From Lautropia sp. SCN 69-89 (GTDB lineage Bacteria > Pseudomonadota > Gammaproteobacteria > Burkholderiales > Burkholderiaceae_E): DNA of 64,000 nt. Under the pieces are notes generated by a model. That model saw nothing but the letters and a program-made list of their open reading frames with translations. It was not told where the DNA came from and made no database searches. Positions 44,735 through 62,746 of the stretch are shown here, piece by piece; positions within the stretch are counted from its first letter, which is position 1, and each line of letters begins with the position of its first letter. Both the position numbers and the translations under genes were made by a program. The DNA is taken from the NCBI GenBank assembly GCA_001724855.1, contig MEED01000018.1:27703-91702 (forward strand). The letters run 5' to 3'.

Positions 44735-45330
44735 CCGAAGCTCTCGTCGTCTCGAACATCGTCCTGTGGGTCGCCGTGCTCGCGCTGCTCGGCACCGTCT
44801 TCGCGCTGGCGCGCCAGATCGGCGTGCTCTACGAGCGCATCGCCCCGATGGGCGCGCTGATGCTCGACAGCGGGCCGAAAGTCGGCGAATCCGCCCCGGC
44901 GTTCGACCTGGTCACGCTCGACGGCCGGCCCTTCGCCACCGGCGGCGCGCGCACGAAGAGCCTGCTGCTGTTCTTCCTCTCGCCGACCTGCCCGGTGTGC
45001 AAGAAGCTGCTGCCGATCCTGAAGCGGGTCGCCGTCGACGAGGGGCAGTGGCTCGAGATCGCGTTCGCGAGCGACGGCGACGTCGACGAACACGCGGCGT
45101 TCCGCACCCGCGCCGGCCTGCAGGCGTATCCGTACCTGCTGTCGACCGACCTCGGCATGGCCTACCGGATCGGCAAGCTGCCCTACGCAGTGCTGGTCGA
45201 CGAAGCCGGAAAGGTGAAGGCCAAGGGCCTCGTCAACTCGCGTGAACAGATCGAGAGCCTGTTCACCGCCCGCGACCTCGGCGTCGCGTCGGTGCAGGAA
45301 TTCGTCGCAATGGAGGCCCGCAGAGCATGA
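44731..45330 (+). CDS. mauD: Thioredoxin-like maturation protein MauD
   Basis: ARQIGVLYERIAPMGAL, SPTCPVCK, KGLVNSREQIESL. Confidence 0.95.
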   Translation: MTEALVVSNIVLWVAVLALLGTVFALARQIGVLYERIAPMGALMLDSGPKVGESAPAFDLVTLDGRPFATGGARTKSLLLFFLSPTCPVCKKLLPILKRVAVDEGQWLEIAFASDGDVDEHAAFRTRAGLQAYPYLLSTDLGMAYRIGKLPYAVLVDEAGKVKAKGLVNSREQIESLFTARDLGVASVQEFVAMEARRA

Positions 45331-45854
45331 AATGGCTTGACGACGCATTCGAGCGCTCGACGCGCGCGGCCGCGCAGCGCATCTCGCGACGCAGCGCACT
45401 GGCACGCGCCGGCCGCTTCCTGATGGGCGCGGCGATCGCGCTGCCGGTGCTGCCCTTCGACCGCACTTCGCACGCCGCGAGCGCCCACGGCGGCGGCAAG
45501 TCGAAGGCGCCCGACGACCAGCAGTGCGACTACTGGCGCTACTGCGCGGTCGACGGCTTCCTCTGCTCGTGCTGCGGCGGGACGGTGAACAGCTGTCCGC
45601 CCGGCACCGAGCCGTCGAAGGTGTCCTGGATCGGCACCTGCCGCAACCCGGCAGACGGCAAGGACTACCTGATCAGCTACTACGACTGCTGCGGCAAGGC
45701 CGCGTGCGGGCGCTGCCTGTGCAACACCAACCTCGGCGAGCGGCCCGCCTACCGGATCACGCTGCACAACGACATCAACTGGTGCATGGGAAGCACCAGC
45801 ACGATGTTCCATTGCACGGCCTCTCTGGTGGTCGGCATCGCTGACAAGAAGTGA
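45327..45854 (+). CDS. mauA: TTQ amine dehydrogenase small subunit (aromatic amine dehydrogenase-like)
   Basis: Tat signal SRRSAL; Cys-rich core; both TTQ tryptophans (VSWIGTC, NDINWCM) and catalytic Asp (YDCCG). Confidence 0.96.
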   Translation: MKWLDDAFERSTRAAAQRISRRSALARAGRFLMGAAIALPVLPFDRTSHAASAHGGGKSKAPDDQQCDYWRYCAVDGFLCSCCGGTVNSCPPGTEPSKVSWIGTCRNPADGKDYLISYYDCCGKAACGRCLCNTNLGERPAYRITLHNDINWCMGSTSTMFHCTASLVVGIADKK

Positions 45855-45870
45855 CACGACAGGAGACGAC

Positions 45871-47235
45871 ATGAAGGGGTGGAAGAAACTCTCGGCAGCC
45901 GTCGCGCTCGCCGTTGCCTGGGGTTCGGCGAGTGGCGCAGCGAGCGAACAGGAAGCCGCGCGGCTGGGCAAGGACCTCACTCCGGTCGGCGCCGAGAAGG
46001 CCGGCAACAAGGAGGGCACGATCCCGGCCTGGACCGGCGGCATCACGAAGGCGCCGGCGGGCTGGAAGCCGAGCGACCCGCGCGTCGACCCGTACAAGGA
46101 CGACAAGGTCCTGTTCTCGATCGACGCGTCGAACGTCGACAAGTACAAGGACAAGCTCTCCGAGGGCCAGCAGACGCTGATCCGCACCCTCAAGGGCTAC
46201 CGGATGGACGTCTACCCGACGCGCCGTTCGTGCGGGTACTCCGACGAGATCTACCAGCGCACCGCGCAGAACGCCCGCGTGGCCCGCCTGGCCGAGGGCG
46301 GCTGGCAGCTCGAGAACGCGGTCGGCCGCGGCGTCCTGTTCCCGGTCCCGAAGAACGGCGCCGAGGCGGTCTGGAACCACAAGCTGCGCTTCCAGGGCGC
46401 GGGGCGCGTCGAGCACTACTCGACGCTGTTCTCGGCGAAGAGCGGCGACTTCTCGCAGCTGGCGCAGAACCAGTGGGTCGTCTACCCGATCCACGACCCG
46501 GCGATGAAGAGCTTCGAGGACCTGAAGAAATCCGAGGCGAAGATCCTGAACGAGGTGGTCTCCCCGGCCGCCCGCGCCGGCGAGATGATCCTGGTGCACT
46601 GGTTCATGGACCGCGGCTCCGACGCCTGGCTCTACTTCCCCGGCCAGCGCCGCGTGCGCCGCGCGCCCTCGTTCGCGTACGACAACCCGGTGCCCGGCTA
46701 CGAGAACCTCGAGACGGTCGACCAGTACCCGATGTATGCCGGCGCGATGGACCGCTACGACTGGAAGCTGGTCGGCAAGAAGGAGATGTACATCCCGTAC
46801 AACAACTGGAAGCTGATCGACAAGAGCCGCAAGTTCAAGGACATCTACCTGCCCGACTACGTCAACCGCGACCTGATGCGCTACGAGTTGCACCGCGTCT
46901 GGGTCGTCGAGGCGACGCTCAAGGAAGGCATGCGTCACATCTTCCCGCGCCGCGTGATGTACATCGACGAGGACAGCTGGACGCTGATCCTTACCGACCT
47001 GTACGACGCGCAGGGAAAGATCTGGCGCGTCCAGGAAGCGAGCCTGTGGGTGGCACCCGAGATCCCGGCCTGCGTGAGCCAGGAGTTCGTCGGCTACGAC
47101 CTCAACGTCGGCCGCTACATCGCCGAGACGGCGACCCAGGAGCACCCGCCCACCGACTGGCTCGCGGGCCGCGAAGGGCGCATCAACCCGAACATGTTCA
47201 GCCCCGACGAGCTGCGTCGCCGCGGCGAGCGCTGA
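45871..47235 (+). CDS. DUF1329-family periplasmic/lipoprotein-sorting-like protein
   Basis: LTPVGAEKAGNKEGTIPAW, AWLYFPGQRRVRRAP, RYELHRVWVVEATLK. Confidence 0.92.
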   Translation: MKGWKKLSAAVALAVAWGSASGAASEQEAARLGKDLTPVGAEKAGNKEGTIPAWTGGITKAPAGWKPSDPRVDPYKDDKVLFSIDASNVDKYKDKLSEGQQTLIRTLKGYRMDVYPTRRSCGYSDEIYQRTAQNARVARLAEGGWQLENAVGRGVLFPVPKNGAEAVWNHKLRFQGAGRVEHYSTLFSAKSGDFSQLAQNQWVVYPIHDPAMKSFEDLKKSEAKILNEVVSPAARAGEMILVHWFMDRGSDAWLYFPGQRRVRRAPSFAYDNPVPGYENLETVDQYPMYAGAMDRYDWKLVGKKEMYIPYNNWKLIDKSRKFKDIYLPDYVNRDLMRYELHRVWVVEATLKEGMRHIFPRRVMYIDEDSWTLILTDLYDAQGKIWRVQEASLWVAPEIPACVSQEFVGYDLNVGRYIAETATQEHPPTDWLAGREGRINPNMFSPDELRRRGER

Positions 47236-47314
47236 GCGCCGCCGCCGACGTCCGATCTGCACCACGCCGGGCCGAGGGTCCGGCGCGACAACGACAACCA
47301 GGAGGAACGGGTCC

Positions 47315-49147
47315 ATGACCAGCAGCATGAGCAGCACCGGGGTGGCGCGGGCGGTTGCCGGCGCGCTCGCCCTTCTCGCGGCGGGCGCGATCGCCCCGCC
47401 CGCGCACGCGTTCAAGTTCGGCAACGACAACGTCACGGGCAGCTTCGACTCGACCGTCTCGTTCGGGTTCATCAAGCGCCTGGAAAGCCCCAGCCGCAGG
47501 ATCATCGGCAACGACAACGGCGGCAACGTGCCGACCACCAGCGAGCTGGAGTCGCGCGTGAACGCCTTCTACGGCGGCGGCGCGATCGCGAACCCCGACT
47601 TCAACTACCTGCAGTCCGACGACGGCAACCTCAACTACAAGAAGGGCGACATCGTTTCGGCGGCGCTCAAGGGCACGCACGAGCTGGTCCTGCACGGACC
47701 GCGCGGCTTGAGCGGCATGCTGCGCGCGACCTGGTTCAAGGACTGGAAGGTCGACGACACCGACCGCACGCCGCTCGATCCCGCGTCGCACGCGGTGGCG
47801 GTCGACAAGTGGACCTGGCTCGATGCGTGGGTCGCGAAGGAATTCGAAATCGCCGGTCGCCCGGCCAAGATCAAGTTCGGCAACCAGGTGATCAGCTGGG
47901 GCGAGGACATCTTCATCTACGGCGGCGTCAACGTCACCAACGCGATCAACCTGCAGAACTTCCACGTGCCCGGCACGCAGCTGAAGGAGATCTTCAAGCC
48001 GGCGCCGATGGTCTCGCTGAACGCCAACATCGCCGAGGGACTGAGCGTCGAGGGCTACTACCAGTTCCGCTGGAACGCGTTCACCTTCGACCCGGTCGGC
48101 ACCTTCTTCTCGGTGACCGACGTGATCGGCAAGGGCGGGCGCAACGCGTTCATGAACTCCACGCTGCTCGGCTTGCCGCCCGGGACCGTCGGCGACATCG
48201 GCACGATCAACCCGACGACGGGGCAGCGTTTCACGCTCGCGGAGCTGGCAGCGGGCACCGCGACGGTGCCGGTGGCCGGCGTCGAACTGCCGACGCTCGT
48301 GAATCCGCTGGCCACCCGCGAGCCGAAGGACTCGGGCCAGTTCGGCCTCGCGACGCGCTGGCTGCCCGAGGGCTCCGAAACCGAGTTCGGCGCGTACTGG
48401 ATCCGCTACCACGACAAGCTGCCCTTCGTCGGGTTCAACTTCGACCCGGCGCGCCACACGACCAACGTCGCCGGCCTGGCCTACTACGTCGACTACGGCG
48501 AGAGCCGCAACGTCTTCGGCGTGTCCGCGAACACGCGCGTCGGCACCTGGGCGGTCGGCGCCGAGCTGTCGTACCGGCCGAAGGACAGCGTCGGCGTCGA
48601 CACGACGGTGCCGGCGGGCGGAAAGTATTCGGTGTTCGACTACGTGGGCAAGACCACGCGAGGCTTCGTCGAGGAGCGCAAGTGGCAGGCCCACCTCACC
48701 GGCTTCAAGCTGATGGCGCCCGCCGACCTGGGCGGCCTGATCGGCAATCTCGGCGCCGAGGAAGGCTACTTCCTCGGCGAGGTGGCCGTCGCGCACTACC
48801 CCGGGCTCGATCGCTCGGGCCGCATCCCGTACCTGCTCACCGACTACTCGCTGCCCGACCGCACCTCGGCCGGGCTGGTGTTCTCCACCGGGCTCACCTA
48901 CGCGAACGTCGGCGACAGCGGCTGGAACATGATGCCGCAGCTCGACATGTCCTGGGACTTCCATGGCACCTCGCCGAACGCGGTGCCCTTCGTCGAAGGC
49001 CGCAAGGCGATGACGCTGTCGCTGAACTTCAACCGCTCCGACAAGTGGAAGGCCGGCATCGGCTATACCCGCTTCTGGGGCGGCGGCGGCAACAACCTGA
49101 TGAGGGACCGCGACTTCCTGTCGGTGATCACCTCGGTGTCGTTCTGA
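47315..49147 (+). CDS. DUF1302-family outer-membrane protein
   Basis: DDGNLNYKKGD, GNQVISWGE, GAELSYRP, terminal DRDFLSVITSVSF. Confidence 0.92.
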   Translation: MTSSMSSTGVARAVAGALALLAAGAIAPPAHAFKFGNDNVTGSFDSTVSFGFIKRLESPSRRIIGNDNGGNVPTTSELESRVNAFYGGGAIANPDFNYLQSDDGNLNYKKGDIVSAALKGTHELVLHGPRGLSGMLRATWFKDWKVDDTDRTPLDPASHAVAVDKWTWLDAWVAKEFEIAGRPAKIKFGNQVISWGEDIFIYGGVNVTNAINLQNFHVPGTQLKEIFKPAPMVSLNANIAEGLSVEGYYQFRWNAFTFDPVGTFFSVTDVIGKGGRNAFMNSTLLGLPPGTVGDIGTINPTTGQRFTLAELAAGTATVPVAGVELPTLVNPLATREPKDSGQFGLATRWLPEGSETEFGAYWIRYHDKLPFVGFNFDPARHTTNVAGLAYYVDYGESRNVFGVSANTRVGTWAVGAELSYRPKDSVGVDTTVPAGGKYSVFDYVGKTTRGFVEERKWQAHLTGFKLMAPADLGGLIGNLGAEEGYFLGEVAVAHYPGLDRSGRIPYLLTDYSLPDRTSAGLVFSTGLTYANVGDSGWNMMPQLDMSWDFHGTSPNAVPFVEGRKAMTLSLNFNRSDKWKAGIGYTRFWGGGGNNLMRDRDFLSVITSVSF

Positions 49148-49166
49148 AACACGGGCCGGTCCGTCG

Positions 49167-51527
49167 ATGATCGCGCACTTCGTCGGCCGGCTCGAACGGC
49201 TCATCTTCGGGCACCGCGGCATCCTGCTCGCGCTGCTGGGTCTGCTCACCGTCGTCATGGCGGTGTTCGCGAGCCAGCTGCGCATGGACGCCGGCTTCGA
49301 CAAGCAGCTGCCGCAAGACCACGAGTACGTCCGCACCTTCTTCCAGTACCGCGACCAGGTCTTCGGCGCCAATCGCGTCATCGTGGTGGTGCGCGCGCGC
49401 GACGGCGAGATCTGGAGCGCGCCCGGCCTGCGCCGGCTCTACGACGTCACGCAGTCGGTGATGTTCCTGCCGGGCATCGACCGGCGCACGGTGACCTCGC
49501 TGTGGACGCCGAACACCCGGGTGCTCGGCGTGACCGAGGAAGGCTTCAAGGCCGAGGACGTGATCGGCGGCGACATCACGCCCGACCGGCTCGACCCGGG
49601 CCGCATCGAGCGGATCCGCGCCAATGCGCTGGCGGGCGGCTACATCGGCACGCTGGTGTCCACCGACAACGCCGCCGCGATGGTCGTTGCCGACCTGCTC
49701 GAGACCGATCCGGCCACCGGCAAGCGCCTCGACTACCTCGACTTCGCGCGCCGCATCGAGGACGAGGTGCGCGGCCGTCACGAGGACGCGTCGTTCGAGG
49801 TGCAGATCATCGGCTTCGCCAAGCAGATCGGCGACATCGCCGACGGCGCGCGCAGCGTCATCGAGTTCTTCACGCTGGCCTTCGTCCTCACCGCGCTGTC
49901 GGTCTGGCTGTATTGCCGCTCGGCCGCGCTCACCGCGATCACGCTGCTGTCGTCGCTCGTGTCCGTCGTCTGGCAGTTCGGCACGCTGCGGCTGCTCGGC
50001 TACGGGCTCGACCCGCTGGCGGTACTGGTTCCGTTCCTGGTGTTCGCGATCGGCGTCTCGCACGGGGTTCAGCAGATCAACTTCGTGGTCAAGGGCGTCT
50101 GCGCCGGTGCCGACAGCATGACCGCGTCGCGCCGGGCGTTCAGCGGGCTGCTGGTGCCGGGCTCGATGGCACTGGTGACCGCCTTCGTCGGCTTCGCCAC
50201 GCTGACGCTGATCCCGATCCCGATGATCCGCGAACTGGGCATCACCGCGTCGATCGGCGTGGCCTACAAGATCGTGACGAACCTCGTGATGCTGCCGGTG
50301 TGCGCATCGTTCCTGCGCTTCGACGATGCCTGGGTCACGCGCCTGAAGCACCTGCGCGCCGCACGCGAGAAGGCGATGACGGTGCTGGGCCGGGTCGCCG
50401 AGACGCGCAATGCCGCGATCGGCACGCTGATCTGCGCAGCACTGTTCGCGATCGCGTTCGTGCAGAGCCAGGGTCGCCACGTCGGGCACCTCGCCTCGGG
50501 CGCACCCGAGCTGCGCCCCGATTCGCGCTACAACCTCGACGCGGCGTCGATCGTCGGCAGCTTCGACCTCGGCCTGGACGTGCTCACCGTCGTCTTCGAG
50601 ACGCCGAAGGACGGCTGCTATCGCCTCGACGTGATGGCCCATGTCGACCAGTTCGCCTGGCACATGCAGAACGTGCCGGGCGTGATCTCGGTCGCCTCGG
50701 TGGCGCAGCTCGCGAAGCAGGCCTACTCGGGCACCAACGAGGGACATCCGAAGTGGACTGCGCTCGCTGCCGACGAGCGCTCGCTGGCGAATTCGGTCGG
50801 CCTGATTCCCGAGGGCACCGGGCTGTTCAACCCCGGCTGCACCGTCCTGCCGGTCAACGTCTACCTCACCGATCACAAGGCATCGACGGTCAAGGACGTG
50901 ATCGCCGCGGTGCGCGAGTTCCGCGACAGCGAGAAGCTCGACGGCGTGACGCTGCGGCTGGCCAGCGGCAACGTGGGGGTGCAGGCGGCGACCAACGAGG
51001 TGCTCGAGACCACCGAGCTGCCGATGATGCTCTGGGTCTACGCGACGATCGTCGCGCTGGTCTTCTTCACCTACCGAGACTGGCGCGCGATGATCGCCTG
51101 CTGCCTGCCGCTCACGTTGGCGACCTTCCTCGGCTACTGGTTCATGAAGGCGCTCGACATCGGGCTGACGGTGGCCACGCTGCCGGTGATGGTGCTCGCG
51201 GTGGGCATCGGCGTGGACTACGCCTTCTACATCTACAACCGCCTGCAGCTGCACCTGTCGGACGGCGCGAACATCGTGGACGCGTTCAAGCAGGCGCTGA
51301 TGGAAACCGGCAACGCGACCATCTTCACCGCGATCACGCTGTCGGTAGGCGTGGCCACCTGGTCGTTCTCCGACCTGAAGTTCCAGGCGGACATGGGGAT
51401 GCTGCTCACGTTCATGTTCATGGTGAACATGCTGATGGCGATCACGCTGCTGCCGGCGCTCGCCGTGATGATCGACGTGCTCGTGCCGCGGCGCCGGCCG
51501 GTGCGCGCGCCGTTCCTCGTCCATTGA
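49167..51527 (+). CDS. RND/MMPL-family membrane transporter
   Basis: Two repeats of loop plus TM bundle; AIGVSHGVQ, GIGVDYAFY, LKFQADMG. Confidence 0.92.
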   Translation: MIAHFVGRLERLIFGHRGILLALLGLLTVVMAVFASQLRMDAGFDKQLPQDHEYVRTFFQYRDQVFGANRVIVVVRARDGEIWSAPGLRRLYDVTQSVMFLPGIDRRTVTSLWTPNTRVLGVTEEGFKAEDVIGGDITPDRLDPGRIERIRANALAGGYIGTLVSTDNAAAMVVADLLETDPATGKRLDYLDFARRIEDEVRGRHEDASFEVQIIGFAKQIGDIADGARSVIEFFTLAFVLTALSVWLYCRSAALTAITLLSSLVSVVWQFGTLRLLGYGLDPLAVLVPFLVFAIGVSHGVQQINFVVKGVCAGADSMTASRRAFSGLLVPGSMALVTAFVGFATLTLIPIPMIRELGITASIGVAYKIVTNLVMLPVCASFLRFDDAWVTRLKHLRAAREKAMTVLGRVAETRNAAIGTLICAALFAIAFVQSQGRHVGHLASGAPELRPDSRYNLDAASIVGSFDLGLDVLTVVFETPKDGCYRLDVMAHVDQFAWHMQNVPGVISVASVAQLAKQAYSGTNEGHPKWTALAADERSLANSVGLIPEGTGLFNPGCTVLPVNVYLTDHKASTVKDVIAAVREFRDSEKLDGVTLRLASGNVGVQAATNEVLETTELPMMLWVYATIVALVFFTYRDWRAMIACCLPLTLATFLGYWFMKALDIGLTVATLPVMVLAVGIGVDYAFYIYNRLQLHLSDGANIVDAFKQALMETGNATIFTAITLSVGVATWSFSDLKFQADMGMLLTFMFMVNMLMAITLLPALAVMIDVLVPRRRPVRAPFLVH

Positions 51528-51549
51528 CCTTCTGCCGATCGGGGGCCGC

Positions 51550-52032
51550 ATGTTCGAACGCCTGATCGCCCGCCTCTCCGGCGAACCCGCCGAGGCGCCC
51601 GGCACCGACCTCGAAGGGCGCCGCCAGCTCGCGGTGGCGGCGCTGCTGGTCGAAGCGGTGCACGTCGACCGCCACGCCGACCCCGAGGAGCGCCAGGCCG
51701 TCGTGTCGCTGCTTCGCGAACGCTTCGACCTGCCCGGCGAGCAGGCCGAGCACCTGGCCGAGCTCGCCGAGGCGCGATTCGCGACGGTGCTCGACGACTG
51801 GATCTTCGCGCGCGCCGTCAGGCAGGGCTTCGACCACGACGAGCGCGCCGGCATCCTGGGAATGCTCTGGGAAACGGTCTACAGCGACGGGCGCCTGGCC
51901 GCTTTCGAGATGGACCTGCTGCAACGGCTGACCGATGCGCTGGAGGTCGAACCGGCCGCGGCCGAGGCGGCGCGCGCGCGCGCGTTCGCGCGCATCGGGC
52001 TGAGCGAACCCGAGAACGGAGGCGACGCATGA
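51550..52032 (+). CDS. TerB-family (DjlA N-terminal-like) protein
   Basis: AVAALLVEAVHVD, LWETVYSDG, E..LLQRL..L. Confidence 0.8.
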   Translation: MFERLIARLSGEPAEAPGTDLEGRRQLAVAALLVEAVHVDRHADPEERQAVVSLLRERFDLPGEQAEHLAELAEARFATVLDDWIFARAVRQGFDHDERAGILGMLWETVYSDGRLAAFEMDLLQRLTDALEVEPAAAEAARARAFARIGLSEPENGGDA

Positions 52033-53057
52033 GCGGGCGGGCACGCACGAAGCGGCGCACGGTCGCGATCGTTGCCGCCTGTGTCCTGGCCGCGTCGCTC
52101 GGAGTGTCGGGCACGGGCGCCGGCGCGGCGGACAAGCCGCCGTCCGACGTGCCCACCGGCGCAGGGGTCGCCCCGAAGACCGACGGCGCGGCCGGCGTGC
52201 ACGCGCAGAAGGTCGCACACCCCGAACGGGCGCCGCTGATGGCGGCCACGCGCGCCGGATCGCGCATCGTCGCGGTCGGCGACTTCGGCACCGTCCTGCT
52301 GTCCGACGACCAGGGCGCGAGCTGGCGGCAGGCAGCCGACGTGCCGACGCGCGTCACGCTGACCGCAGTGCAGTTCCTCGACGCGAAGCAGGGATGGGCG
52401 GTCGGGCACGGCGGGCTGGTGCTCGCCAGTGCCGACGGCGGCGAGCACTGGCGCGTCGCGCACCGCGCCGGCACCGAGTTCTCGTTCTTCTCGGTGCACT
52501 TCTCCGACGCCGAACACGGGCTGGTGGTCGGCGCATTCGGCGCCGCGATCGCCACGGAAGACGGCGGCAAGACCTGGGACGAAATCACCGTCGGGCAAGG
52601 CGAGTTCTCCGATCGCCACCTGTACCAGATCTTCCCCGGCCCCGACGGCACGACCTGGATCGCCGCCGAGAGCGGCGTGGTCTACCGCTCGACCGACGCA
52701 CGCGTGTTCGCTCCGGTCTCGCTGCCCTATCGCGGCTCGATCTGGGGCGGCATGACGCTGCCCGGCGGCGCGATCCTGGTCTGGGGCATGGGCGGGCACG
52801 TGCTGCGCAGCACCGACTCGGGCGCGTCGTGGCGCGAGATCCCCAGCGGCACCGAGAACCCGTTGACCGCCGGGCTGCTGCTGGGCAAGCGGATCGTGCT
52901 CGCCGGACTCGGCGGCGCGGTGCTCACCAGCGACGACCTCGGCGCGAGCTTCCGCGCCGAGATCCGTCCCGACCGCCTGTCCTACACCGCGGCGGTCGAG
53001 TCCGCCGGGGCGCCGCTGCTGACCAGCCTGTCGGGCGTAGCCGCGCCGCGCAAATGA
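52029..53057 (+). CDS. YCF48-related BNR/beta-propeller protein
   Basis: Repeated SDDQGASW / TEDGGKTW / STDSGASW Asp-box motifs; signal peptide. Confidence 0.9.
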   Translation: MSGRARTKRRTVAIVAACVLAASLGVSGTGAGAADKPPSDVPTGAGVAPKTDGAAGVHAQKVAHPERAPLMAATRAGSRIVAVGDFGTVLLSDDQGASWRQAADVPTRVTLTAVQFLDAKQGWAVGHGGLVLASADGGEHWRVAHRAGTEFSFFSVHFSDAEHGLVVGAFGAAIATEDGGKTWDEITVGQGEFSDRHLYQIFPGPDGTTWIAAESGVVYRSTDARVFAPVSLPYRGSIWGGMTLPGGAILVWGMGGHVLRSTDSGASWREIPSGTENPLTAGLLLGKRIVLAGLGGAVLTSDDLGASFRAEIRPDRLSYTAAVESAGAPLLTSLSGVAAPRK

Positions 53058-53104: not shown

Positions 53105-54598
53105 ATGAACCAGTCCGTCCAGAGCCAGCAACCCGAACTCTCGGCCATCCGGCAGAAGATGTTCATCGACGGAAGGTTCGTCGATGCGCGCTCCGGCAAG
53201 ACGCTGCCGGTGTTCAACCCGGCCACCGGCGCCGAGATCGCCCGGGTGCCCGACGCCCAGGCCGAAGACGTCGACGCGGCGGTGCGCTCGGCGCGCGCCA
53301 CTTTCGAGTCGGCGGCCTGGCAGGGCATGCTGCCCGCCGAGCGCGAGCGGCTGCTGCTGAAGCTGGCCGACCTGATCGAGCAGCACGGCGAGGAGCTCGC
53401 GCGGCTCGAGACGCTGAACAACGGCAAGCTGCTGATGTTCTCGCGGATGCTCGAGGTGGGCGCCAACGCGCAGTGGACGCGCTACATGGCCGGCTGGGCC
53501 ACGAAGATCGAAGGCTCGACGCTGGACGTGTCGATTCCGTTTCCGCCCGGCGTGCGCTACACCGCGATGACCCGTCGCGAGCCGGTCGGCGTCGTCGGCG
53601 CGATCGTGCCGTGGAACTTCCCGCTGCTGATGGCGATGTGGAAGATCGCGCCGGCGCTGGCCTGCGGCTGCACCGTGGTGCTCAAGCCGGCCGAGGAAAC
53701 GCCGCTCACCGCGCTGCGGCTGGCCGAGCTGGTGATGGAGGCGGGTTTCCCGGCGGGCGCGGTCAACGTGGTCACCGGCTACGGCGAAAGCGCGGGCGCG
53801 GCGCTGGTGCGTCATCCGGGCGTCAACAAGATCGCCTTCACCGGCTCGACCGAGGTCGGCAAGATCATCGGCCGCAGCTGCATGGACGACATGAAGCGCG
53901 TGTCGCTCGAGCTGGGCGGCAAGAGCCCGGTGATCGTGCTCGACGACTGCGATCCCGCGGTCGCGGTCGCGGGCGCGGCCGGCGCGATCTTCTTCAACCA
54001 CGGCCAGGTCTGCACGGCCGGCTCCCGGCTGTTCGTGCACAAGAGCCGCTACGACCAGGTGCTCGCCGGGCTCGCGTCCGCGGCCGAGTCGACGAAGCTC
54101 GGCGACGGTTTCGACGAGTCCGCGCAGATGGGCCCGATGGTGTCGGCCACGCATCGCGACCGCGTGGTGCGCTACATCGAGTCGGGCAAGTCCGAAGGAG
54201 CCGAGCTGCTCGCCGGCGGCCAGGCGCAGCCCGGATCGGGCTACTTCGTACGGCCCACCGTGTTCTCGAACACCACGGGCAAGGACCTCACGATCTCGCG
54301 CGAGGAGATCTTCGGGCCGGTGGTCGTCGCGTCGCCGTTCGACGATCTCGACGACGTGGCACGCAAGGCGAACGACTCGCGCTACGGGCTGGGGGCGAGC
54401 ATCTGGACCAACAACCTGACGCAGGCCTACCGGCTGATCCCCAAGGTGCAGGCCGGCACCGTCTGGCTGAACTGCCACAACATGGTCGATCCGAACCTGC
54501 CGTTCGGCGGCTACAAGGACTCCGGCGTCGGGCGCGAGCACGGCCGGGCGATGATCGACGTCTACACGGAGACGAAGTCGGTGTGCGTAGCCTACTGA
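53105..54598 (+). CDS. Aldehyde dehydrogenase, phenylacetaldehyde dehydrogenase-like
   Basis: PWNFPL, FTGSTEVG, LELGGKSP, NHGQVCTAG, EEIFGPV. Confidence 0.93.
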   Translation: MNQSVQSQQPELSAIRQKMFIDGRFVDARSGKTLPVFNPATGAEIARVPDAQAEDVDAAVRSARATFESAAWQGMLPAERERLLLKLADLIEQHGEELARLETLNNGKLLMFSRMLEVGANAQWTRYMAGWATKIEGSTLDVSIPFPPGVRYTAMTRREPVGVVGAIVPWNFPLLMAMWKIAPALACGCTVVLKPAEETPLTALRLAELVMEAGFPAGAVNVVTGYGESAGAALVRHPGVNKIAFTGSTEVGKIIGRSCMDDMKRVSLELGGKSPVIVLDDCDPAVAVAGAAGAIFFNHGQVCTAGSRLFVHKSRYDQVLAGLASAAESTKLGDGFDESAQMGPMVSATHRDRVVRYIESGKSEGAELLAGGQAQPGSGYFVRPTVFSNTTGKDLTISREEIFGPVVVASPFDDLDDVARKANDSRYGLGASIWTNNLTQAYRLIPKVQAGTVWLNCHNMVDPNLPFGGYKDSGVGREHGRAMIDVYTETKSVCVAY

Positions 54599-54966
54599 GT
54601 CCGGGCAGGCTGGCGGCCGGGTTGCTCGCGGTCGGGCTGCTCTGCGGCGGCCCGGCGGCGGCCGCGCAGCCCGCAGCCGCGTCGGCGCCGCAGAACGCGG
54701 CGACGCTGTACGCGCTGAACTGCATGGGCTGCCATCCGCCCCCGCGCACGCCCGGCGCGGACCGCGGGCCGTTGCGCGGCGAGTTCTACCTGAACGCGCG
54801 CGGCCGCAACTTCTACATCCGCGTGCCGCAGGACGGCAAGCGCGTGCTCGGCCCCGACGAGGAAGCGCGGCTGCTCGACGAGATCATGACCTGGAAGCGC
54901 AGTTGCGCGGCGATCCTGCAGGACGCGCCCCAGGTGCACTACAGCGGCGAGCGCTTCGTCAAATGA
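54583..54966 (+). CDS. Small monoheme cytochrome c
   Basis: Signal peptide then YALNCMGCH; GRNFYIRVP; GTG start inside the ALDH 3' end is inferred. Confidence 0.8.
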   Translation: MRSLLSPGRLAAGLLAVGLLCGGPAAAAQPAAASAPQNAATLYALNCMGCHPPPRTPGADRGPLRGEFYLNARGRNFYIRVPQDGKRVLGPDEEARLLDEIMTWKRSCAAILQDAPQVHYSGERFVK

Positions 54967-56057
54967 ACGTGCGCTCGCTGCCTCGGGTCGTCGCCGCAAT
55001 GCTCGCCGCCGTGCTGCTCGCCGCGGCACCCGCGCGCGCGGCCGATACGGTTTCGCGGCCGCCGTCGCCGGCGGCCAGCGCGGCACTTCTCGAACTCGGC
55101 CGGCACCTGTTCTTCGAGTCGCGCCTGTCCGGCGACGGCAGCCGCAGCTGCGCGAGCTGCCACGCGCCGGCGCGCGGCTTCTCGGAGGGCGTGGCGCTGT
55201 CGCGCGGCTACAACCACAGCGGGCACTTCCGCAATGCGCCCGGCCTGCTCGGCCTGCGGCTCAAGGAGCGACTCGCCTGGGACGGGCGCTACCGCATCGA
55301 CGAGCTGCCGAAGCTGGTCGAGGAGATGCTGACCTCGCCGATCACGATGAACGGCAACCCGGGGATCATCGCCGAGCGGGTGCGCCAGGTGCCGCAGCTG
55401 CTGCAGTTGTGGCAGCGGGCCTTCGGCGAGCGCACGCCGCCCTCGTTCGACGGCGTGGCCCGTGCGATCGCCGCCTGGTCGGCCGCGCACGACGGCGGCG
55501 ACACCGCGGTCGACGCCGCGCTGCGCGGCGACGCGTCGGCGCTGTCGCCGCGGGCCGCCGAGGGGATGCGGCTGTTCACCGGCAAGGCGGGCTGCTCGGG
55601 CTGCCATTCCGGTCCGGCGTTCTCCGACGGCCTGGCGCACCGGCTCGGCGTCCCTGAATCGCCGCAGATCCTGCGCGATCCGGAGCGCACGGTCGCGCTG
55701 CTGGCCCATCACGCGAGTCATGGCTCGGCCGACCCGATGAGCGAGCGCAGCGACACCGGCGTGCACGCGTTGACCCGCAGGGCTTCGGACCGGGGACGCT
55801 TCTTCACGCCGGGCCTGCGCGGCGTGGCGCAGACCGCCCCGTACATGCACAACGGTACCCTCCCCGATCTCGCGGCGGTCGTCGCGTTCTACGACCGCGG
55901 CGGCGGCCGCGGCTCCGAGACGAAGCCGCTCGGCCTGTCCGCGAGCGAACGCGAAGCGCTGGTGGCGTTCCTCGAGGCGCTCACGCCGCGCACCGCGCTC
56001 GCCGTGGCGCCGCCGCCCGCCTTCGACTACGCCACGCAGGCGGGAGCCGGGCGATGA
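54963..56057 (+). CDS. Di-heme cytochrome c peroxidase/MauG-family protein, copy 1
   Basis: CASCH and CSGCH, RNAP, WDGR, TAPYMHNG..VAFY. Confidence 0.9.
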   Translation: MNVRSLPRVVAAMLAAVLLAAAPARAADTVSRPPSPAASAALLELGRHLFFESRLSGDGSRSCASCHAPARGFSEGVALSRGYNHSGHFRNAPGLLGLRLKERLAWDGRYRIDELPKLVEEMLTSPITMNGNPGIIAERVRQVPQLLQLWQRAFGERTPPSFDGVARAIAAWSAAHDGGDTAVDAALRGDASALSPRAAEGMRLFTGKAGCSGCHSGPAFSDGLAHRLGVPESPQILRDPERTVALLAHHASHGSADPMSERSDTGVHALTRRASDRGRFFTPGLRGVAQTAPYMHNGTLPDLAAVVAFYDRGGGRGSETKPLGLSASEREALVAFLEALTPRTALAVAPPPAFDYATQAGAGR

Positions 56058-57250
56058 AGATCCGGGTCGTCACGGGCGTGCTGCTCGCGCTCGCTGCGAG
56101 CGCTGCGGTCGCCGTGGCCGCGCTGTCGGCCGCGCGCGCACCGGCGCCCGCCTCGGCCGACTCGGTGCCCGCGCTGGCGCTGCTGCCGCCGGTGCCGGTG
56201 CCGGCCGACAACCCGATGAGCGCGGCCAAGGTCGAGCTCGGGCGGCTGCTGTTCTTCGATGCGCGCCTGTCGGGCGACACCTCGACCTCGTGCGCGACGT
56301 GCCACGTCGCGCAGATGGGCTGGACTCACGGCGATGCGCTCGCGCCCGGCTATCCGGGCCACCGTCTGTGGCGCAACAACCCCACGGTGCTCAACGCCGC
56401 GCATTTCCGCCGGCTGATGTGGGACGGCAGCCTCGACCGGCTCGAGGTGCAGGCGCGCTCGGCCATGCAGGCGCCGGTCGAGGGCAACGGCAACGCCGCC
56501 ATCGTCGAGATGCGGCTGCGGCTGGTGCCCGAATACGTCGACCGCTTCCGCGAGGCGTTCGGCGCCGAGTGGCCCAGGCTCGACGATGCGTGGCGGGCGA
56601 TCGCAGCCTTCGAGCGCACCGTCGTCTCCGATCCGCGCAAGGTGCCGTTCGACCGCTTCCTGGCTGGCGACGCGAAGGCGCTGACCGCCGCGGCGCAGCG
56701 CGGCTACGCGCTGTTCACCGGCAAGGCGGGCTGCATCGCCTGCCACCATGGCCCGCTGGCGAGCGACGAGAGCTATCACGCGCTCGGCGTCCCGCGCCAG
56801 TCGCTGTACGACTCCAGCGCGCTGGTGCAGGTCGCGGTGCGCTGGCAGAACGCCCAGCGCGATGCGCCGCGCGCGCTGTACCGCGGCGCCGAGGAAGACC
56901 TCGGCCGCTACTACCGCACCCGCGATCCAGCCGACATCGGCAAGTTCCGCACGCCGTCGCTGCGCGAGCTGCGCTACACCGCGCCCTACATGCACAACGG
57001 CGTGTTCGGCACGCTGCAGGAAGTGGTCGACTTCTTCGACCGCGGTGGCGGCGACGCGCCCAACAAGTCGCCGCTGCTGCGCCCGCTCGGGCTCACCAGC
57101 GACGAGAAGCGCGACCTGGTCGCGTTCCTCGAATCGATGAGCATGGACGAGCCGCTGATCGTCGCCGCGCCCGAGCTGCCGCCGATGCAGCCGCTCGTCG
57201 AGGAAACGGCGGGCAGCTGCAGCGCGAACGATGGAGGAGGGGCGGGATGA
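56054..57250 (+). CDS. Di-heme cytochrome c peroxidase/MauG-family protein, copy 2
   Basis: PADNP..KVELGRLLFFDARLS, CATCH and CIACH, WDG..EVQA..PVE, TAPYMHNG..VDFF. Confidence 0.92.
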   Translation: MKIRVVTGVLLALAASAAVAVAALSAARAPAPASADSVPALALLPPVPVPADNPMSAAKVELGRLLFFDARLSGDTSTSCATCHVAQMGWTHGDALAPGYPGHRLWRNNPTVLNAAHFRRLMWDGSLDRLEVQARSAMQAPVEGNGNAAIVEMRLRLVPEYVDRFREAFGAEWPRLDDAWRAIAAFERTVVSDPRKVPFDRFLAGDAKALTAAAQRGYALFTGKAGCIACHHGPLASDESYHALGVPRQSLYDSSALVQVAVRWQNAQRDAPRALYRGAEEDLGRYYRTRDPADIGKFRTPSLRELRYTAPYMHNGVFGTLQEVVDFFDRGGGDAPNKSPLLRPLGLTSDEKRDLVAFLESMSMDEPLIVAAPELPPMQPLVEETAGSCSANDGGGAG

Positions 57251-59592
57251 CGAACGCCGGCAGGCTCTGGAACCGCTTCGTGATGAACCCCCGGGGCTGG
57301 TGGCTGCCGCTGCTCGCGGTGCTCGCGATCGGCGTGGGCAGCATGCTGTACATGGGCACGCGCACCTACCTCGATGCGCCACCGGTGCCCGACTTCGTCG
57401 ACGAGCGCGGCGTCGCGGTGGTACCGGCCGCAGCAATCACGCGCGGGCAGGCGGTGTTCCTGAAGTACGGGCTGATGAACTACGGCAGCATGTTCGGCGA
57501 CGGCGCCGGACGCGGCCCCGACTTCACCGCCGACGCGCTGCACCAGATGGCGCGCGCGATGCGCGACCATCATGCGTCCGCCGACGGCGTCGACGTCGAT
57601 TCCGCGCTCGCCGCCGCGCAGCGCGAGATCAAGCGCAATCGCCACGATGCGCTCACCGACACGGTCACCGTCGGCGCGGCGCAGGCCTATGCCGCGCGCG
57701 AGATCGAGCGTCGCGTGGCCGCGATGTTCCGCGGCGAGGGCAGCGAAGCCTTCCACCCTGCCGGCTTCATCGCCGACGAAGCCGAACTGCGCGACCTCGC
57801 GGCCTTCTTCTTCTGGGGAGCGTGGGTCTGCGGCGTCGAGCGGCCCGGCAAGGCCTACAGCTACACGCACAACTGGCCGTACGACGAGCTGGCCGGCAAC
57901 CGGCCGAGCGCGCAGGTCATGCTGTGGAGCGTGATCGCGGTGCTCGCGCTGGTGGCCGCGCTCGGCGCGGTGCTGTTCCTGTACGGCCGCTACGCGTCGA
58001 TCGCCGGATGGCGTCCCGCGCAGCGCGGCGACGCGTTCCCGCAGGCGGGAGCGATGGCCAGCGCCGCGGCGGTCGATGCGCTGCGCCCCGGCGCGCTGCA
58101 GCGCGCGACCTACAAGTTCTTCGCTGCCGCCGCGGTGCTGTTCGTGCTGCAGGTCGCCGCCGGCATCCTGACGGTGCACGACTTCCTCGGCATCACCCGG
58201 GTGTTCGGCGTCGATCTCGCGCAGGCGCTGCCGATCCCGGTGGTCCGCGGCTGGCACCTGCAGCTCGCGCTGCTGTGGATCACCGCCTGCTGGGTCGGCG
58301 CGTCGATCTTCGTCGTGTCGACGGCGGCGCCTCGGGCACCGGCCGGACAACTGAGGCTGGTCCAGCGGCTGTTCGGCCTGTTCGTCTTCACCGCGGTCGG
58401 CGGGCTGGCCGGTGTCGCGCTCGGGCCGCACGGGCTGCTCGGCGACTGGTGGCACCTGCTCGGCAGCCAGGGTTGGGAGTTCGTCGAACAGGGCAGGCTC
58501 TGGCAGGCGCTGCTGTTCGCGGTGTTCGCGCTGTGGTGCCTGGTGCTCGCACGTGCGGTGCGGCCGATCTGGCATTCGGGCGATGCGTGGATGCTGCCGA
58601 AGTGGCTGCTCTACTGCGTCGCCTGCGTGCTGGTGCTGTTCGTCTCCGGGTTCGTCGCAACCCCGCAGACCAACTTCGTGGTCGCCGATTTCTGGCGCTG
58701 GGCGGTGATCCACATGTGGGTCGAGGCGTTCTTCGAAGTCTTCACCACCGCGGTGCTCGCGTACTTCATGGTGCTGATGGGACTGGTGAGCCACCCCGCG
58801 GCCTCGCGCATCGTCTATCTCGCAGCCCTGCTGTTCCTCGGTTCGGGCCTGCTCGGCATCTCGCACAACTTCTACTGGAACGCCAAGCCGGTCGAGACGC
58901 TGGCGATCGGCAGCGTGTTTTCGACGCTGCAGGTCGTGCCGCTGATCCTGCTCACGCTCGAAGCCTGGCAATTCCGCAACGCGCCGCAGCGCGCGAACGC
59001 CGCTGGCGGCTTCGGCCAGTCGGAGGCGTTCCTGTTCCTGCTCGGCGTGAATGTCTGGAACTTCCTGGGCGCCGGCATGTTCGGCTTCATGATCAACCTG
59101 CCGATCGTCAACTACTACGAGCACGGGACCTACCTGACGGTGAACCACGGCCACGCCGCGCTGATGGGCGTCTACGGCAACCTCGCGATCGCGACGATCG
59201 TCTTCTGCGCGCGCTGCCTCATCGAGCCCGCCCGCTGGAACGCCGCGCTGCTGCGCCGCGTGTTCTGGTCGCTCAACGTCGGCCTGCTGCTGATGATCGT
59301 CGCCGACCTGTTTCCGGTGGGCATCGCGCAACTGCTCGACGTGCTCGAAAACGGCTTCTGGCACGCACGCTCGCAGGCGTTCATCGGCAGCGACCTGTTC
59401 CAGGCGCTCACCTGGGCCCGCATCGTCGGCGGTGCGCTGTTCGTGCTCGGCGGCGTGCTGCCGCTGGCCTGGTTCGTCGTGACTCGTGCGGCCGCACTGA
59501 AGGCGCCGCGTCCCGAGCCAGCCGAGGACGCGGCGACCCGCACTGCGCCGGGCGCGGACGCGCTGCCGTTGGCCGAGGGCCCGCGCGCCTGA
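57247..59592 (+). CDS. qNOR-related heme-copper-oxidase superfamily protein with Nod-type (putative NO dismutase) active-site substitutions
   Basis: qNOR architecture (GPDFTAD, WHLQL, HMWVEAFFE, TVNHGH); SHNFYW instead of HH, TLQVVP instead of E, YTHNWP, RIVGG instead of R..GD. Confidence 0.85.
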   Translation: MTNAGRLWNRFVMNPRGWWLPLLAVLAIGVGSMLYMGTRTYLDAPPVPDFVDERGVAVVPAAAITRGQAVFLKYGLMNYGSMFGDGAGRGPDFTADALHQMARAMRDHHASADGVDVDSALAAAQREIKRNRHDALTDTVTVGAAQAYAAREIERRVAAMFRGEGSEAFHPAGFIADEAELRDLAAFFFWGAWVCGVERPGKAYSYTHNWPYDELAGNRPSAQVMLWSVIAVLALVAALGAVLFLYGRYASIAGWRPAQRGDAFPQAGAMASAAAVDALRPGALQRATYKFFAAAAVLFVLQVAAGILTVHDFLGITRVFGVDLAQALPIPVVRGWHLQLALLWITACWVGASIFVVSTAAPRAPAGQLRLVQRLFGLFVFTAVGGLAGVALGPHGLLGDWWHLLGSQGWEFVEQGRLWQALLFAVFALWCLVLARAVRPIWHSGDAWMLPKWLLYCVACVLVLFVSGFVATPQTNFVVADFWRWAVIHMWVEAFFEVFTTAVLAYFMVLMGLVSHPAASRIVYLAALLFLGSGLLGISHNFYWNAKPVETLAIGSVFSTLQVVPLILLTLEAWQFRNAPQRANAAGGFGQSEAFLFLLGVNVWNFLGAGMFGFMINLPIVNYYEHGTYLTVNHGHAALMGVYGNLAIATIVFCARCLIEPARWNAALLRRVFWSLNVGLLLMIVADLFPVGIAQLLDVLENGFWHARSQAFIGSDLFQALTWARIVGGALFVLGGVLPLAWFVVTRAAALKAPRPEPAEDAATRTAPGADALPLAEGPRA

Positions 59593-59604
59593 AGCCTGCG
59601 TTGC

Positions 59605-62743: not shown

Positions 62744-62746
62744 CGC

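Follow-up and report, generated by a model that had tools for sequence, protein, structure and literature searches.

A Nod-like nitric oxide enzyme coupled to di-haem cytochrome genes in denitrifying Proteobacteria

A 64,000-nucleotide stretch of Lautropia sp. SCN 69-89 (contig MEED01000018.1; here called the window) encodes a nitric oxide dismutase (Nod)-like membrane protein derived from quinol-dependent NO reductase (qNOR). It belongs to the clade that is sister to the Methylomirabilis Nod clade. In many denitrifiers the gene is coupled to genes for di-haem cytochromes and found alongside a TTQ amine dehydrogenase, which gives this unproven enzyme family testable partner proteins. The NOD family in the wide sense is known, widespread and biochemically uncharacterised; what appears new is the genomic context.

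Fold, signature residues and clade

The open reading frame is intact, and a sequence-only reading of the window had singled it out as a Nod or Nod-sister protein on the basis of its active-site residues. The gene and the sites discussed below are as follows.

57247..59592 (+): Nod-like, qNOR-derived haem-b/b3 membrane protein of 781 aa (NOD family in the wide sense, sister clade of Methylomirabilis Nod)
57861..57878 (+): site of the general nod forward primer nod684Fv2 (encodes YTHNWP), 1 mismatch
58177..58191 (+): quinol-site helix, with H328 retained (H311 of the protein, 58177-58179) and E332 replaced by Gly (G315, 58189-58191)
58711 (+): H489, equivalent to H508
58864..58869 (+): codons for H540 and N541, equivalent to H559 and H560N (third metal-site His replaced by Asn)
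58869..58889 (+): site of the general nod reverse primer nod1706Rv2 (reverse complement), 1 mismatch
58930..58932 (+): codon for Q562, Gln at the E581 position
59431..59433 (+): codon for G729, Gly at the position of the quinol-site Asp D746

The qNOR fold is supported by Pfam matches to NorB_cytochrome_c-like (PF22085; residues 50-212, 1.4e-39) and COX1 (PF00115; residues 287-730, 6.8e-43), and the best solved structure is the Geobacillus stearothermophilus (Gs) qNOR 3AYF (E 6e-144). Gs numbering was mapped onto a MAFFT alignment, in which the control residues of Gs itself came out as H328, E332, H508, E512, H559, H560, E581 and D746. At Gs positions 90, 234, 328, 332, 336, 337, 508, 512, 516, 559, 560, 581 and 746, the window protein reads D, H, H, G, V, F, H, E, E, H, N, Q and G. 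The haem ligands H337 (WHLQL) and H634/H636 (NHGH) are invariant in 12 diverse relatives, and the motifs YTHNWP and GDGA are present. The protein keeps haem b, haem b3, two of the three metal-site histidines and the metal-site glutamate, but the third histidine is Asn, the catalytic-site Glu581 is Gln, and two of the three quinol-binding residues are lost. Every residue named in the sequence-only reading lies at the codon given there, and the observation stands.

These substitutions are not chance. All 120 closest database proteins (54-97% identity) and all 80 genome loci that cover the positions carry D90, N560, Q581 and G746. The half-retained quinol site is also typical of the clade, as H328 is kept in about 90% of members while E332 and D746 are always lost. 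These two residues, together with H328, bind the quinol analogue in the crystal structure (PMC3413370).

Phylogenetic analysis separates the protein from 12 qNOR-signature sequences, including 3AYF, by a branch with SH-aLRT 100; grouping within canonical qNORs had been named beforehand as an outcome that would count against a Nod assignment. The 69 N560/Q581 rows, including M. oxyfera DAMO_2434, form one clade (SH-aLRT 100, from a quick IQ-TREE search with no bootstrap). This group is nested inside qNORs and matches the NOD family in the wide sense, as defined by the Ettwig 2012 signatures and by Murali/Ruff (PMC11549561). Within it, the window protein lies in a sister clade (97) and not inside the Methylomirabilis-type clade (100), which holds DAMO_2434 and the NC10-primer sequences. 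Both general nod primers fit the window gene with one mismatch each, and the predicted amplicon is 1029 bp, against 1023 bp for DAMO_2437.

A conserved di-haem module beside an amine dehydrogenase

The nod-like gene lies at the end of an operon, the other parts of which are listed here in gene order.

43032..44183 (+): TTQ amine dehydrogenase heavy subunit
44143..45330 (+): MauE/MauD-like accessory protein (reaches the MauD equivalog, 192.9 against 188.6 bits)
45327..45854 (+): TTQ amine dehydrogenase small subunit, aromatic amine dehydrogenase (AADH) type
45871..53057 (+): envelope module of DUF1329, DUF1302, RND (HAE3-like), TerB and BNR/Ycf48-like genes inside the operon
53147..54598 (+): phenylacetaldehyde dehydrogenase (StyD equivalog, 899 bits against a cut-off of 850); start inferred from the profile alignment
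54583..54966 (+): small periplasmic mono-haem cytochrome c (signal peptide, CMGCH); GTG start inferred
54963..56057 (+): di-haem CCP/MauG-family protein 1, with Tyr at the axial-ligand position, MbnH/MauG-like
56054..57250 (+): di-haem CCP/MauG-family protein 2, with two CxxCH motifs and Phe at the Tyr/Met axial-ligand position; its stop overlaps the nod-like start (ATGA)

The amine dehydrogenase genes were identified with Pfam and NCBIfam profiles, and the small subunit is closest to AADH, with the best PDB hit at 2AGL (4.6e-56, against 1.7e-36 to 3.4e-44 for MADH). The di-haem 2 gene ends at 57250 and the nod-like gene starts at 57247, preceded by a GGAGGAGG Shine-Dalgarno sequence. This ATGA overlap is kept in 27 of 33 loci from Burkholderiales, Rhodocyclales and Hyphomicrobium. 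The order cytochrome c, di-haem 1, di-haem 2 and nod-like is kept in 30 Burkholderiales/Rhodocyclales loci, and a single di-haem gene sits directly upstream in 3 Hyphomicrobium loci. However, most of the sister clade (Bacteroidota, Planctomycetota, Acidobacteria) has no di-haem neighbour, and the partnership therefore cannot explain the whole clade. Five informative proteobacterial nod-like loci (L010, L026, L035, L036 and L039) also lack the di-haem genes within 10 kb.

The link to TTQ genes recurs in four different arrangements: in the same operon (the window, loci L001 and L005, and others), divergent (Sulfuritalea loci L022, L023 and L029), downstream on the same strand (Hyphomicrobium locus L009), and divergent in a gammaproteobacterium (L047). 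It is also seen at genome level. A TTQ small subunit is present in 16 of 20 genomes of this proteobacterial subclade, compared with 25 of 300 background genomes of the order and 3 of 29 holders of more distant nod-likes (Fisher p = 9e-13, from counts not corrected for shared ancestry). One genome with the four-gene module (G301) shows no TTQ gene, and all 25 background TTQ genomes lack a nod-like gene. The hosts are denitrifiers, with nirS in 19-20 of 22 genomes and nosZ in 17 of 22; the window's genome has nirS, nosZ and a cNOR-type NorB.

Whether the di-haem proteins are MauG-type TTQ maturases was examined in several ways. Both score far below the MauG equivalog cut-off (TIGR03791; 223.1 and 159.4 bits against 443.85), and PDB cytochrome c peroxidases and BthA score higher than MauG. 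The position of the axial ligand of the six-coordinate haem, which is Tyr in MauG, was located through alignment with the Met of MacA and the Tyr of BthA. Di-haem 1 has Tyr at this position in the window but His in 13 of 32 orthologues, including those of Sulfuritalea, where the TTQ genes are adjacent. The adjacent di-haem 2 has Phe in 32 of 32. Furthermore, 17 of 20 other aauB-ED-A clusters have no MauG-like gene within 10 kb.

The terminal gene of the operon can also be swapped. In genome G145 the same operon (aauB-ED-A, DUF1329, DUF1302, RND, TerB, BNR, AldDH, cytochrome c, di-haem 1, di-haem 2) ends in AioB/AioA-like genes instead of the nod-like gene. The pair plus Aio-like genes recurs in two further genomes, G193 (twice) and G081, and the pair with the Aio/Idr-like molybdoenzyme is sometimes found in genomes with no TTQ gene. 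The pair therefore belongs to the terminal enzyme, not to TTQ maturation as such.

Proposed role and alternative readings

The explanation favoured here, with a probability of roughly 0.45, is that the Nod-like protein works as one unit with the three proteins encoded just upstream. In this NirS denitrifier the unit would act on periplasmic NO and serve as the redox outlet of the TTQ aromatic amine dehydrogenase encoded in the same operon. Electrons from phenylethylamine-type amines would reach the cytochrome c and di-haem proteins, with NO as the final oxidant. The protein contains no CxxCH, and it has no haem c and no complete quinol site; the di-haem partner is therefore the likely route by which it exchanges redox equivalents. 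Either electrons pass into haem b and the product is N2O, or an O2- or peroxide-level product of NO dismutation is handed to the di-haem enzymes. Of the two outcomes, N2O is considered somewhat more likely than N2 + O2. The swapped operon lends support by analogy, as the related iodate reductase IdrAB is a cytochrome-c-fed terminal reductase that also comes with two di-haem peroxidases (PMC8692401). However, the haem-less cytochrome-c-like domain of qNOR covers haem b, such that electron entry from an external cytochrome is not obviously possible; CCP/MauG-family proteins are enzymes and not simple electron carriers; and retention of H328 in about 90% of the clade does not exclude some quinol use. 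The fold, the residues, the clade, the gene coupling, the co-occurrence and the denitrifier background are demonstrated by the sequence analysis, whereas complex formation, the electron path, the substrate and the product, including any dismutation of NO, are inferred from sequence and context alone, in the absence of expression, interaction or activity data.

The sequence-only reading had proposed that internally made O2 could be put to use in this context, or that the clade has a third function. In the first case the enzyme would dismutate NO to N2 + O2 without electron input, and the MauG-like enzymes would use the O2 to mature the TTQ cofactor when the cell respires nitrate without external O2. 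The dehydrogenase itself needs no O2; only its cofactor synthesis does. Several lines of evidence are consistent with this view: the catalytic-site changes shared with the Methylomirabilis Nod and monophyly with it, the crippled quinol site and lack of haem c, the strong co-occurrence with TTQ genes, the availability of NO in nirS hosts, and a cNOR-type NorB that already provides for ordinary NO reduction in the window's genome. In addition, di-haem 1 of the window has the MauG-type Tyr and the genome has no other MauG candidate, and in Hyphomicrobium a Tyr-type MauG-like gene overlaps the nod-like start and is followed by mauB-E-D-A on the same strand. However, NO dismutase activity has never been shown for any NOD (PMC11549561), and no data here show O2 production. 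The low MauG scores, the Phe and His substitutions, the aauB-ED-A clusters without a MauG-like gene, the background TTQ genomes without a nod-like gene, and the di-haem pairs in genomes without TTQ genes all weigh against it, making this reading possible but unlikely. Taken together, the interpretation in the sequence-only reading is partly supported: the Nod-type (more exactly Nod-sister) identity, the half-retained quinol site, the translational coupling and the link to the amine dehydrogenase are borne out, but a role of the di-haem proteins as O2-consuming TTQ maturases is not supported as stated.

An equally unlikely alternative is an ordinary respiratory or detoxifying NO reductase that makes N2O, fed by quinol through a modified site that still uses H328 or by the general cytochrome pool, with its place at the end of the amine dehydrogenase operon reflecting shared regulation or co-transfer and not a specific partnership. 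In about 10 of 22 subclade genomes, which are MAGs and in which eNOR, sNOR and gNOR were not searched for, it is the only c/qNOR-type gene found, and most of those genomes have nirS and nosZ; something must make N2O there. In Asinibacterium OR53 the homologue lies in an NO-stress or denitrification setting (nirK-cytochrome c, Rrf2, Crp, hemerythrin). Fuchsman et al. 2017 argued from field data that such qnorB-like genes make N2O (PMC5723336), and loss of a metal-site His does not preclude NOR activity in other HCO families (gNOR, 10.1101/2021.10.15.464467). However, this reading does not explain the conserved 4-nt overlap across three orders, the invariant Phe in the partner or the co-occurrence with TTQ genes, and E332 and D746 are always lost.

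A third possibility, considered very unlikely, is a local NO scavenger of any product chemistry, which would keep NirS-made NO away from the open-coordination haems of the di-haem proteins and from the amine dehydrogenase and would not carry net respiratory flux. The hosts make NO in the same compartment, the Phe-type partner probably has a haem that lacks a sixth protein ligand and would bind NO (an inference from the alignment), and the window's genome has a separate cNOR-type NorB. However, this reading is not distinguishable from the others with sequence data, and it does not explain why an Aio/Idr-like enzyme can take the same place in the operon.

Comparison with known systems

The putative nitric oxide dismutase of Candidatus Methylomirabilis oxyfera (DAMO_2434, CBE69496.1; DAMO_2437) has the same fold and length class, shares D90, YTHNWP, H559-N560, Q581 and G746, and retains H508, E512 and E516. 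However, identity to DAMO_2434 is only 42%. The window protein keeps H328 in an LTVHDF motif (LTVHDFLGI) of qNOR-like length, whereas all 22 rows of the Methylomirabilis-type clade have E, T or I at this position, and many have a GGGPG-type insertion. The genomic context also differs, as M. oxyfera has two tandem nod genes and a small cytochrome c, and no di-haem genes.

The protein most likely belongs to the group described as “qnorB-like”, “unknown qNor-related” or non-Methylomirabilis NOD subclades (Fuchsman 2017; Zhu 2017-2020; Ruff et al. 2024). These have a Nod-type active site and 40-50% identity to Methylomirabilis Nod, and are found in Bacteroidota, Planctomycetota and Proteobacteria that often carry nosZ. 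The di-haem gene coupling and the link to TTQ amine dehydrogenase are not described in the papers that could be read, and full-text literature searches for nitric oxide dismutase with MauG or with amine dehydrogenase found nothing relevant.

The qNORs of G. stearothermophilus (3AYF), A. xylosoxidans and N. meningitidis share the N-terminal transmembrane helix, the haem-less cytochrome-c-like domain and the 12-helix HCO core, as well as the haem ligands, H508, H559, E512, E516 and H328. The window protein differs by H560N, E581Q, E332G, D746G and H90D, and falls outside all qNOR-signature sequences in the tree.

The iodate reductase cluster idrABP1P2 (Pseudomonas sp. SCT, Denitromonas sp. IR-12) offers a parallel: an anaerobic, periplasm-facing terminal enzyme that travels with two tandem di-haem cytochrome c peroxidase-family genes, much as the di-haem pair here precedes either the nod-like gene or AioB/AioA-like genes. 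The catalytic enzyme is unrelated (molybdopterin against haem-copper oxidase family), and the gene order is P1-P2-B-A here but A-B-P1-P2 in idr. Finally, if the di-haem partner feeds electrons, the pair would work like NorB with its c-type cytochrome subunit NorC in cNOR. In this case the partner is a di-haem CCP/MauG-family protein and not a mono-haem NorC, the catalytic subunit still carries the fused haem-less NorC-like domain, and the active site is Nod-type, while the genome has a separate NorB-like gene with HH and E.

Active-site residues and family placement

The frame 57247..59592 (+) is open and gives 781 residues. Pfam finds the haem-less cytochrome-c-like domain of NorB/qNOR (residues 50-212) and the haem-copper oxidase core (287-730), whereas no NCBIfam model fits. 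The best solved structure is the G. stearothermophilus (Gs) qNOR 3AYF (E 6e-144), ahead of the A. xylosoxidans and N. meningitidis qNORs and far ahead of cNOR NorB. Gs numbering was transferred through a MAFFT alignment in which Gs itself reads H328, E332, H508, E512, H559, H560, E581 and D746, as it should. At positions 90/234/328/332/336/337/508/512/516/559/560/581/746 the window protein reads D H H G V F H E E H N Q G, against H N H E F F H E E H H E D in Gs. The sequence-only observation of a qNOR-derived protein with Nod-type substitutions thus holds, as every residue and codon coordinate that it assigned is correct. The stop of the upstream gene (57250) overlaps the start (57247) as ATGA, behind a GGAGGAGG ribosome-binding site. 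The pattern is a family trait and not noise, as evidenced by D90, N560, Q581 and G746 in all 120 nearest database proteins (54-97% identity) and in all 80 genome loci that cover the positions. About 90% keep H328, and none keeps E332. A pseudogene is ruled out because the frame is intact and all cofactor ligands are conserved.

A HMMER scan of 1.84 billion representatives (clusters at 50% identity) returned 21 proteins of 690-1100 residues among the best 150. One aligned over the N-terminal part only and gave no signature. Only two of the other 20 have the N560/Q581/G746 signature, namely P0122 (56% identity to the window protein) and P0123 (41%), whereas the other 18 have the qNOR residues H560/E581 and, with one exception, D746. 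A scan of the genome collection, homologue searches and a cluster look-up gave no Methylomirabilis or HdN1 sequence. Metagenome contigs were then scanned with the published NC10-specific nod primer pair as a DNA pattern (PMC6636425), and a search with one of the resulting proteins retrieved CBE69496.1 (DAMO_2434) from the 2.75-Mb M. oxyfera genome. It is 42% identical to the window protein over the full length.

A tree of 82 sequences (IQ-TREE, LG+C20+F+G4), rooted on the cNOR-type NorB of the window's own genome, separates two groups; another run gave the same topology. Twenty-two Methylomirabilis-type sequences, including DAMO_2434, form one clade (SH-aLRT 100), and 47 sequences, including the window protein, form another (97). 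The two clades together are monophyletic (100, branch 1.07) against all qNOR-signature sequences, although these are quick searches without bootstraps in which several qNOR rows have long branches and HdN1 is absent, its position in the Methylomirabilis-type clade being taken from the literature. The two clades share the catalytic-site changes but differ at the former quinol site. The Methylomirabilis-type clade has E, T or I at 328, often followed by a GGGPG-type insertion, and the window's clade keeps LT(V/I)HDF with qNOR-like length.

Taken together, these data reject a canonical qNOR, four defining features of which are not satisfied, and membership of the Methylomirabilis-type clade, which is excluded by the tree and by the quinol-site motif. 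The protein is a member of the sister subclade of the NOD family in the wide sense. This wider group is already known as "qnorB-like" (PMC5723336), as "unknown qNor-related" (PMC7338807) and, in a 2024 review, as subclades of a NOD family that share only 40-50% similarity (PMC11549561). The general nod primers of the field fit the window gene with one mismatch each and predict a 1029-bp product; the gene would be amplified by these primers in surveys and counted as "oxygenic denitrification".

Operon, host and conservation of the neighbourhood

Thirteen co-oriented genes precede the nod-like gene in what is, from gene arrangement, an amine dehydrogenase operon:

43032: TTQ amine dehydrogenase heavy subunit
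44143: MauE/D
45327: TTQ small subunit, closest to aromatic amine dehydrogenase
45871-53057: DUF1329, DUF1302, RND, TerB and BNR/Ycf48-like envelope module
about 53147-54598: StyD-type phenylacetaldehyde dehydrogenase
54583-54966: small cytochrome c
54963-56057: di-haem CCP/MauG-family gene 1
56054-57250: di-haem CCP/MauG-family gene 2

The envelope module between the TTQ small subunit and the aldehyde dehydrogenase is conserved in that place in many loci (among the collected genome loci, L001, L005, L013, L017, L135, L137 and L144). Convergent with the operon end are a class III aminotransferase (59605-61398, minus strand; PRK07481-type, kept next to the nod-like gene in about 10 loci) and a split PEP-synthase-like dikinase pair (61670-63955, minus strand). 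A search for regulatory motifs found no FNR/DNR box at 0 mismatches, and the 2-mismatch hits are not placed in intergenic DNA. No sigma-70-like promoter was found in 42500-60500, and the four terminator-like sites lie inside genes and are fewer than in shuffles.

The genome is 3.8 Mb, 69% GC and 95.6% complete. It encodes nirS, nosZ, a cNOR-type NorB-like protein with the HH and E signature, and cbb3- and aa3-type oxidases, and it has one nod-like gene and no further MauG candidate. Four further divergent haem-copper oxidase homologues (C22:75544-76833, C22:69966-71162, C6:4588-5898 and C32:47418-48659) might be members of the newer NOR families (eNOR, sNOR and similar); the two that were scanned score only 70-84 bits against the A-family model. 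The two same-genus genomes in the sample (G121 and G208) lack both the TTQ small subunit and the nod-like gene and have a 35-36% identical qNOR-family gene instead, suggesting that the operon may be a recent acquisition in the window's organism.

Clustering of longest ORFs from the neighbourhoods, all against all, was uninformative because antisense ORFs dominate in DNA of 69% GC, and conservation was instead followed by tblastn of the window's proteins and with called genes. Among 80 genome loci, the order cyt c, di-haem 1, di-haem 2, nod-like is found in 30, from Burkholderiaceae, Limnobacter, Polaromonas, Rhodocyclaceae, Sulfuritalea and Uliginosibacterium. In three Hyphomicrobium loci a single di-haem gene lies directly upstream. 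The 4-nt ATGA overlap between the di-haem gene and the nod-like gene is kept in 27 of 33 loci, including Hyphomicrobium. One Rhodocyclaceae MAG (G303) carries two nod-like genes of the sister clade, at loci L020 and L039, one with the di-haem module and one without, and a Melainabacteria contig (L072, 4-2061) carries a second, 41%-identical paralogue next to the sister-clade gene.

TTQ genes are linked to the nod-like gene in four different layouts: in the same operon (window type), divergent (Sulfuritalea), downstream on the same strand (Hyphomicrobium locus L009: mauG-like, nod-like, two ORFs, mauB-E-D-A), and divergent in a gammaproteobacterium (L047). At genome level, the TTQ small subunit is present in 16 of 20 genomes of the proteobacterial nod-like subclade, in 3 of 29 holders of more distant nod-likes (Bacteroidota, Planctomycetota and others), and in 25 of 300 evenly drawn genomes of the same order, own genome excluded (Fisher p = 9e-13, not corrected for ancestry). 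None of the 25 background TTQ genomes has a nod-like gene. Outside the subclade the context differs. In Asinibacterium OR53 the homologue lies beside nirK-cytochrome c, Rrf2, Crp and hemerythrin genes. In a Pseudomonadales MAG and in the Proteobacteria MAG PRO5 (protein P0065) the immediate neighbours are unrelated genes, but the locus of P0065, L035, is one of the subclade loci and not outside it.

The di-haem proteins and the proposed role of the module

Both di-haem proteins have two CxxCH motifs. Both score higher against cytochrome c peroxidases and BthA than against MauG, and both are far below the MauG equivalog cut-off. The position of the sixth haem ligand, which is Met in peroxidases and Tyr in MauG and BthA, was located 14 residues after the His of PYMH; this assignment rests on pairwise profile alignments and not on a structure. 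Among loci L001-L062, the protein whose gene is fused to the nod-like gene has an invariant Phe here (FFDRGGG, 32 of 32 loci), whereas di-haem 1 has Tyr in 19 loci and His in 13, the latter mostly Rhodocyclales, and the single Hyphomicrobium gene has Tyr. A di-haem CCP-family protein with no obvious sixth ligand is unusual in itself. Seventeen of 20 other aauB-ED-A clusters in the order have no MauG-like gene within 10 kb. An identity as ordinary mauG is therefore rejected on score, ligand and distribution.

A search for di-haem 2 in the same 300 genomes found the tandem pair in only three other genomes. In all four places there (loci L155, at G145:C34:183001-199000, 545-6166, and L159, L160 and L161), the pair is followed by a Rieske (AioB-like) and a molybdopterin (AioA-like) gene instead of a nod-like gene. 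The AioA-like gene scores 358-440 bits against the TIGR02693 cut-off of 359, and both genes score borderline to the arsenite oxidase equivalogs. This is possibly an iodate-reductase-like or new oxyanion enzyme. One of these genomes, G145, has the complete window-type operon up to di-haem 2 (L155), whereas the other two, G081 and G193, have no TTQ small subunit. The di-haem pair is therefore tied to the terminal enzyme, and that terminal enzyme is exchangeable.

The hosts are denitrifiers. All but two or three of the 22 subclade genomes have nirS, and 17 have nosZ; in several, nirS or nosZ lies 5-30 kb from the nod-like gene on the same contig (G302:C12 54892-62047, G320:C51, G315:C14 and G316:C56). 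In about 10 of the 22 the nod-like protein is the only c/qNOR-type hit in a search with NorB from the window's genome, which favours N2O formation in those organisms, although the genomes are MAGs and the search did not extend to other NOR families (eNOR, sNOR, gNOR). These genomes appear to rely on the enzyme as their only c/qNOR-type enzyme, which bears on its count as "oxygenic denitrification" in surveys. On the other hand, four genomes, including the window's, have a cNOR-type NorB at 75% identity or more, and others have a more distant NorB-like or second qNOR-family hit, so there the nod-like enzyme is not needed for bulk NO reduction. The sequence alone cannot decide the product. A plain NOR with incidental linkage to the amine dehydrogenase is possible but unlikely, and a protective NO scavenger is less likely still.

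The analysis establishes a Nod-sister enzyme with a crippled quinol site and no haem c, conserved translational coupling to a Phe-type di-haem protein, membership of a four-gene module, repeated physical and genomic association with TTQ aromatic amine dehydrogenase, nirS-denitrifier hosts, and exchangeability with an Aio/Idr-like enzyme. What is inferred from these is that the module is the NO-linked redox outlet of the amine dehydrogenase, with the di-haem partner as the interface; substrate and product, including any conversion of NO to N2 and O2, likewise belong to inference. This reading is tentative, with a probability of roughly 0.45.

The interpretation offered from sequence alone is partly supported: a Nod-sister protein coupled to a MauG-like gene is borne out, whereas its suggestion that internally made O2 could serve maturation of TTQ remains unlikely. 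A bolder version, also unlikely, is not excluded. In this view the nod-like enzyme is an oxidant generator that would turn NirS-made NO into O2 or a peroxide-level species without external electrons, and the tandem di-haem MauG/peroxidase-family proteins would be the dedicated consumers of that oxidant, using it either to build the TTQ cofactor in the absence of air or as a periplasmic "peroxide respiration" fed by the amine dehydrogenase. The Aio/Idr-like enzyme that replaces it in sister operons would be an interchangeable second oxidant generator, making "dark oxygen for cofactor and periplasmic chemistry" a modular trait of denitrifiers.

Relation to known NOD-family and iodate reductase systems

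Whether NOD-family enzymes make O2 from NO has been an open question for more than ten years, and the 2024 review states that no NOD has been characterised biochemically or structurally and that homologues from each subclade need study (PMC11549561). The family is known, but the partnership and its context appear not to have been described, as full-text literature searches found nothing. What differs from earlier accounts is that a subclade has a fixed, translationally coupled candidate partner, a di-haem protein with an unusual Phe at the axial-ligand position. This is the first concrete candidate for how a quinol-less, haem-c-less enzyme could be wired into metabolism. The locus also supplies a defined physiological context, anaerobic oxidation of aromatic amines by a TTQ enzyme in nirS denitrifiers, that is open to genetics and isotope assays, and several holders belong to genera with cultured members (Uliginosibacterium, Sulfuritalea, Hyphomicrobium, Limnobacter and Polaromonas).

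In M. oxyfera (L162, FP565575, 6708-13062), two tandem nod genes are followed by a 126-aa cytochrome c. A small cytochrome c is thus a neighbour of NOD-family genes in both clades.

The exchange of terminal enzymes behind the di-haem pair recalls idrABP1P2. There, an Aio-related iodate reductase fed by cytochrome c comes with two di-haem peroxidases, thought to remove H2O2 or an unknown oxidant, or to shuttle electrons (PMC8692401). The gene order P1-P2-B-A in the loci with Aio-like genes differs from that of idrABP1P2, but the parallel suggests a common logic for tandem di-haem peroxidase-like genes.
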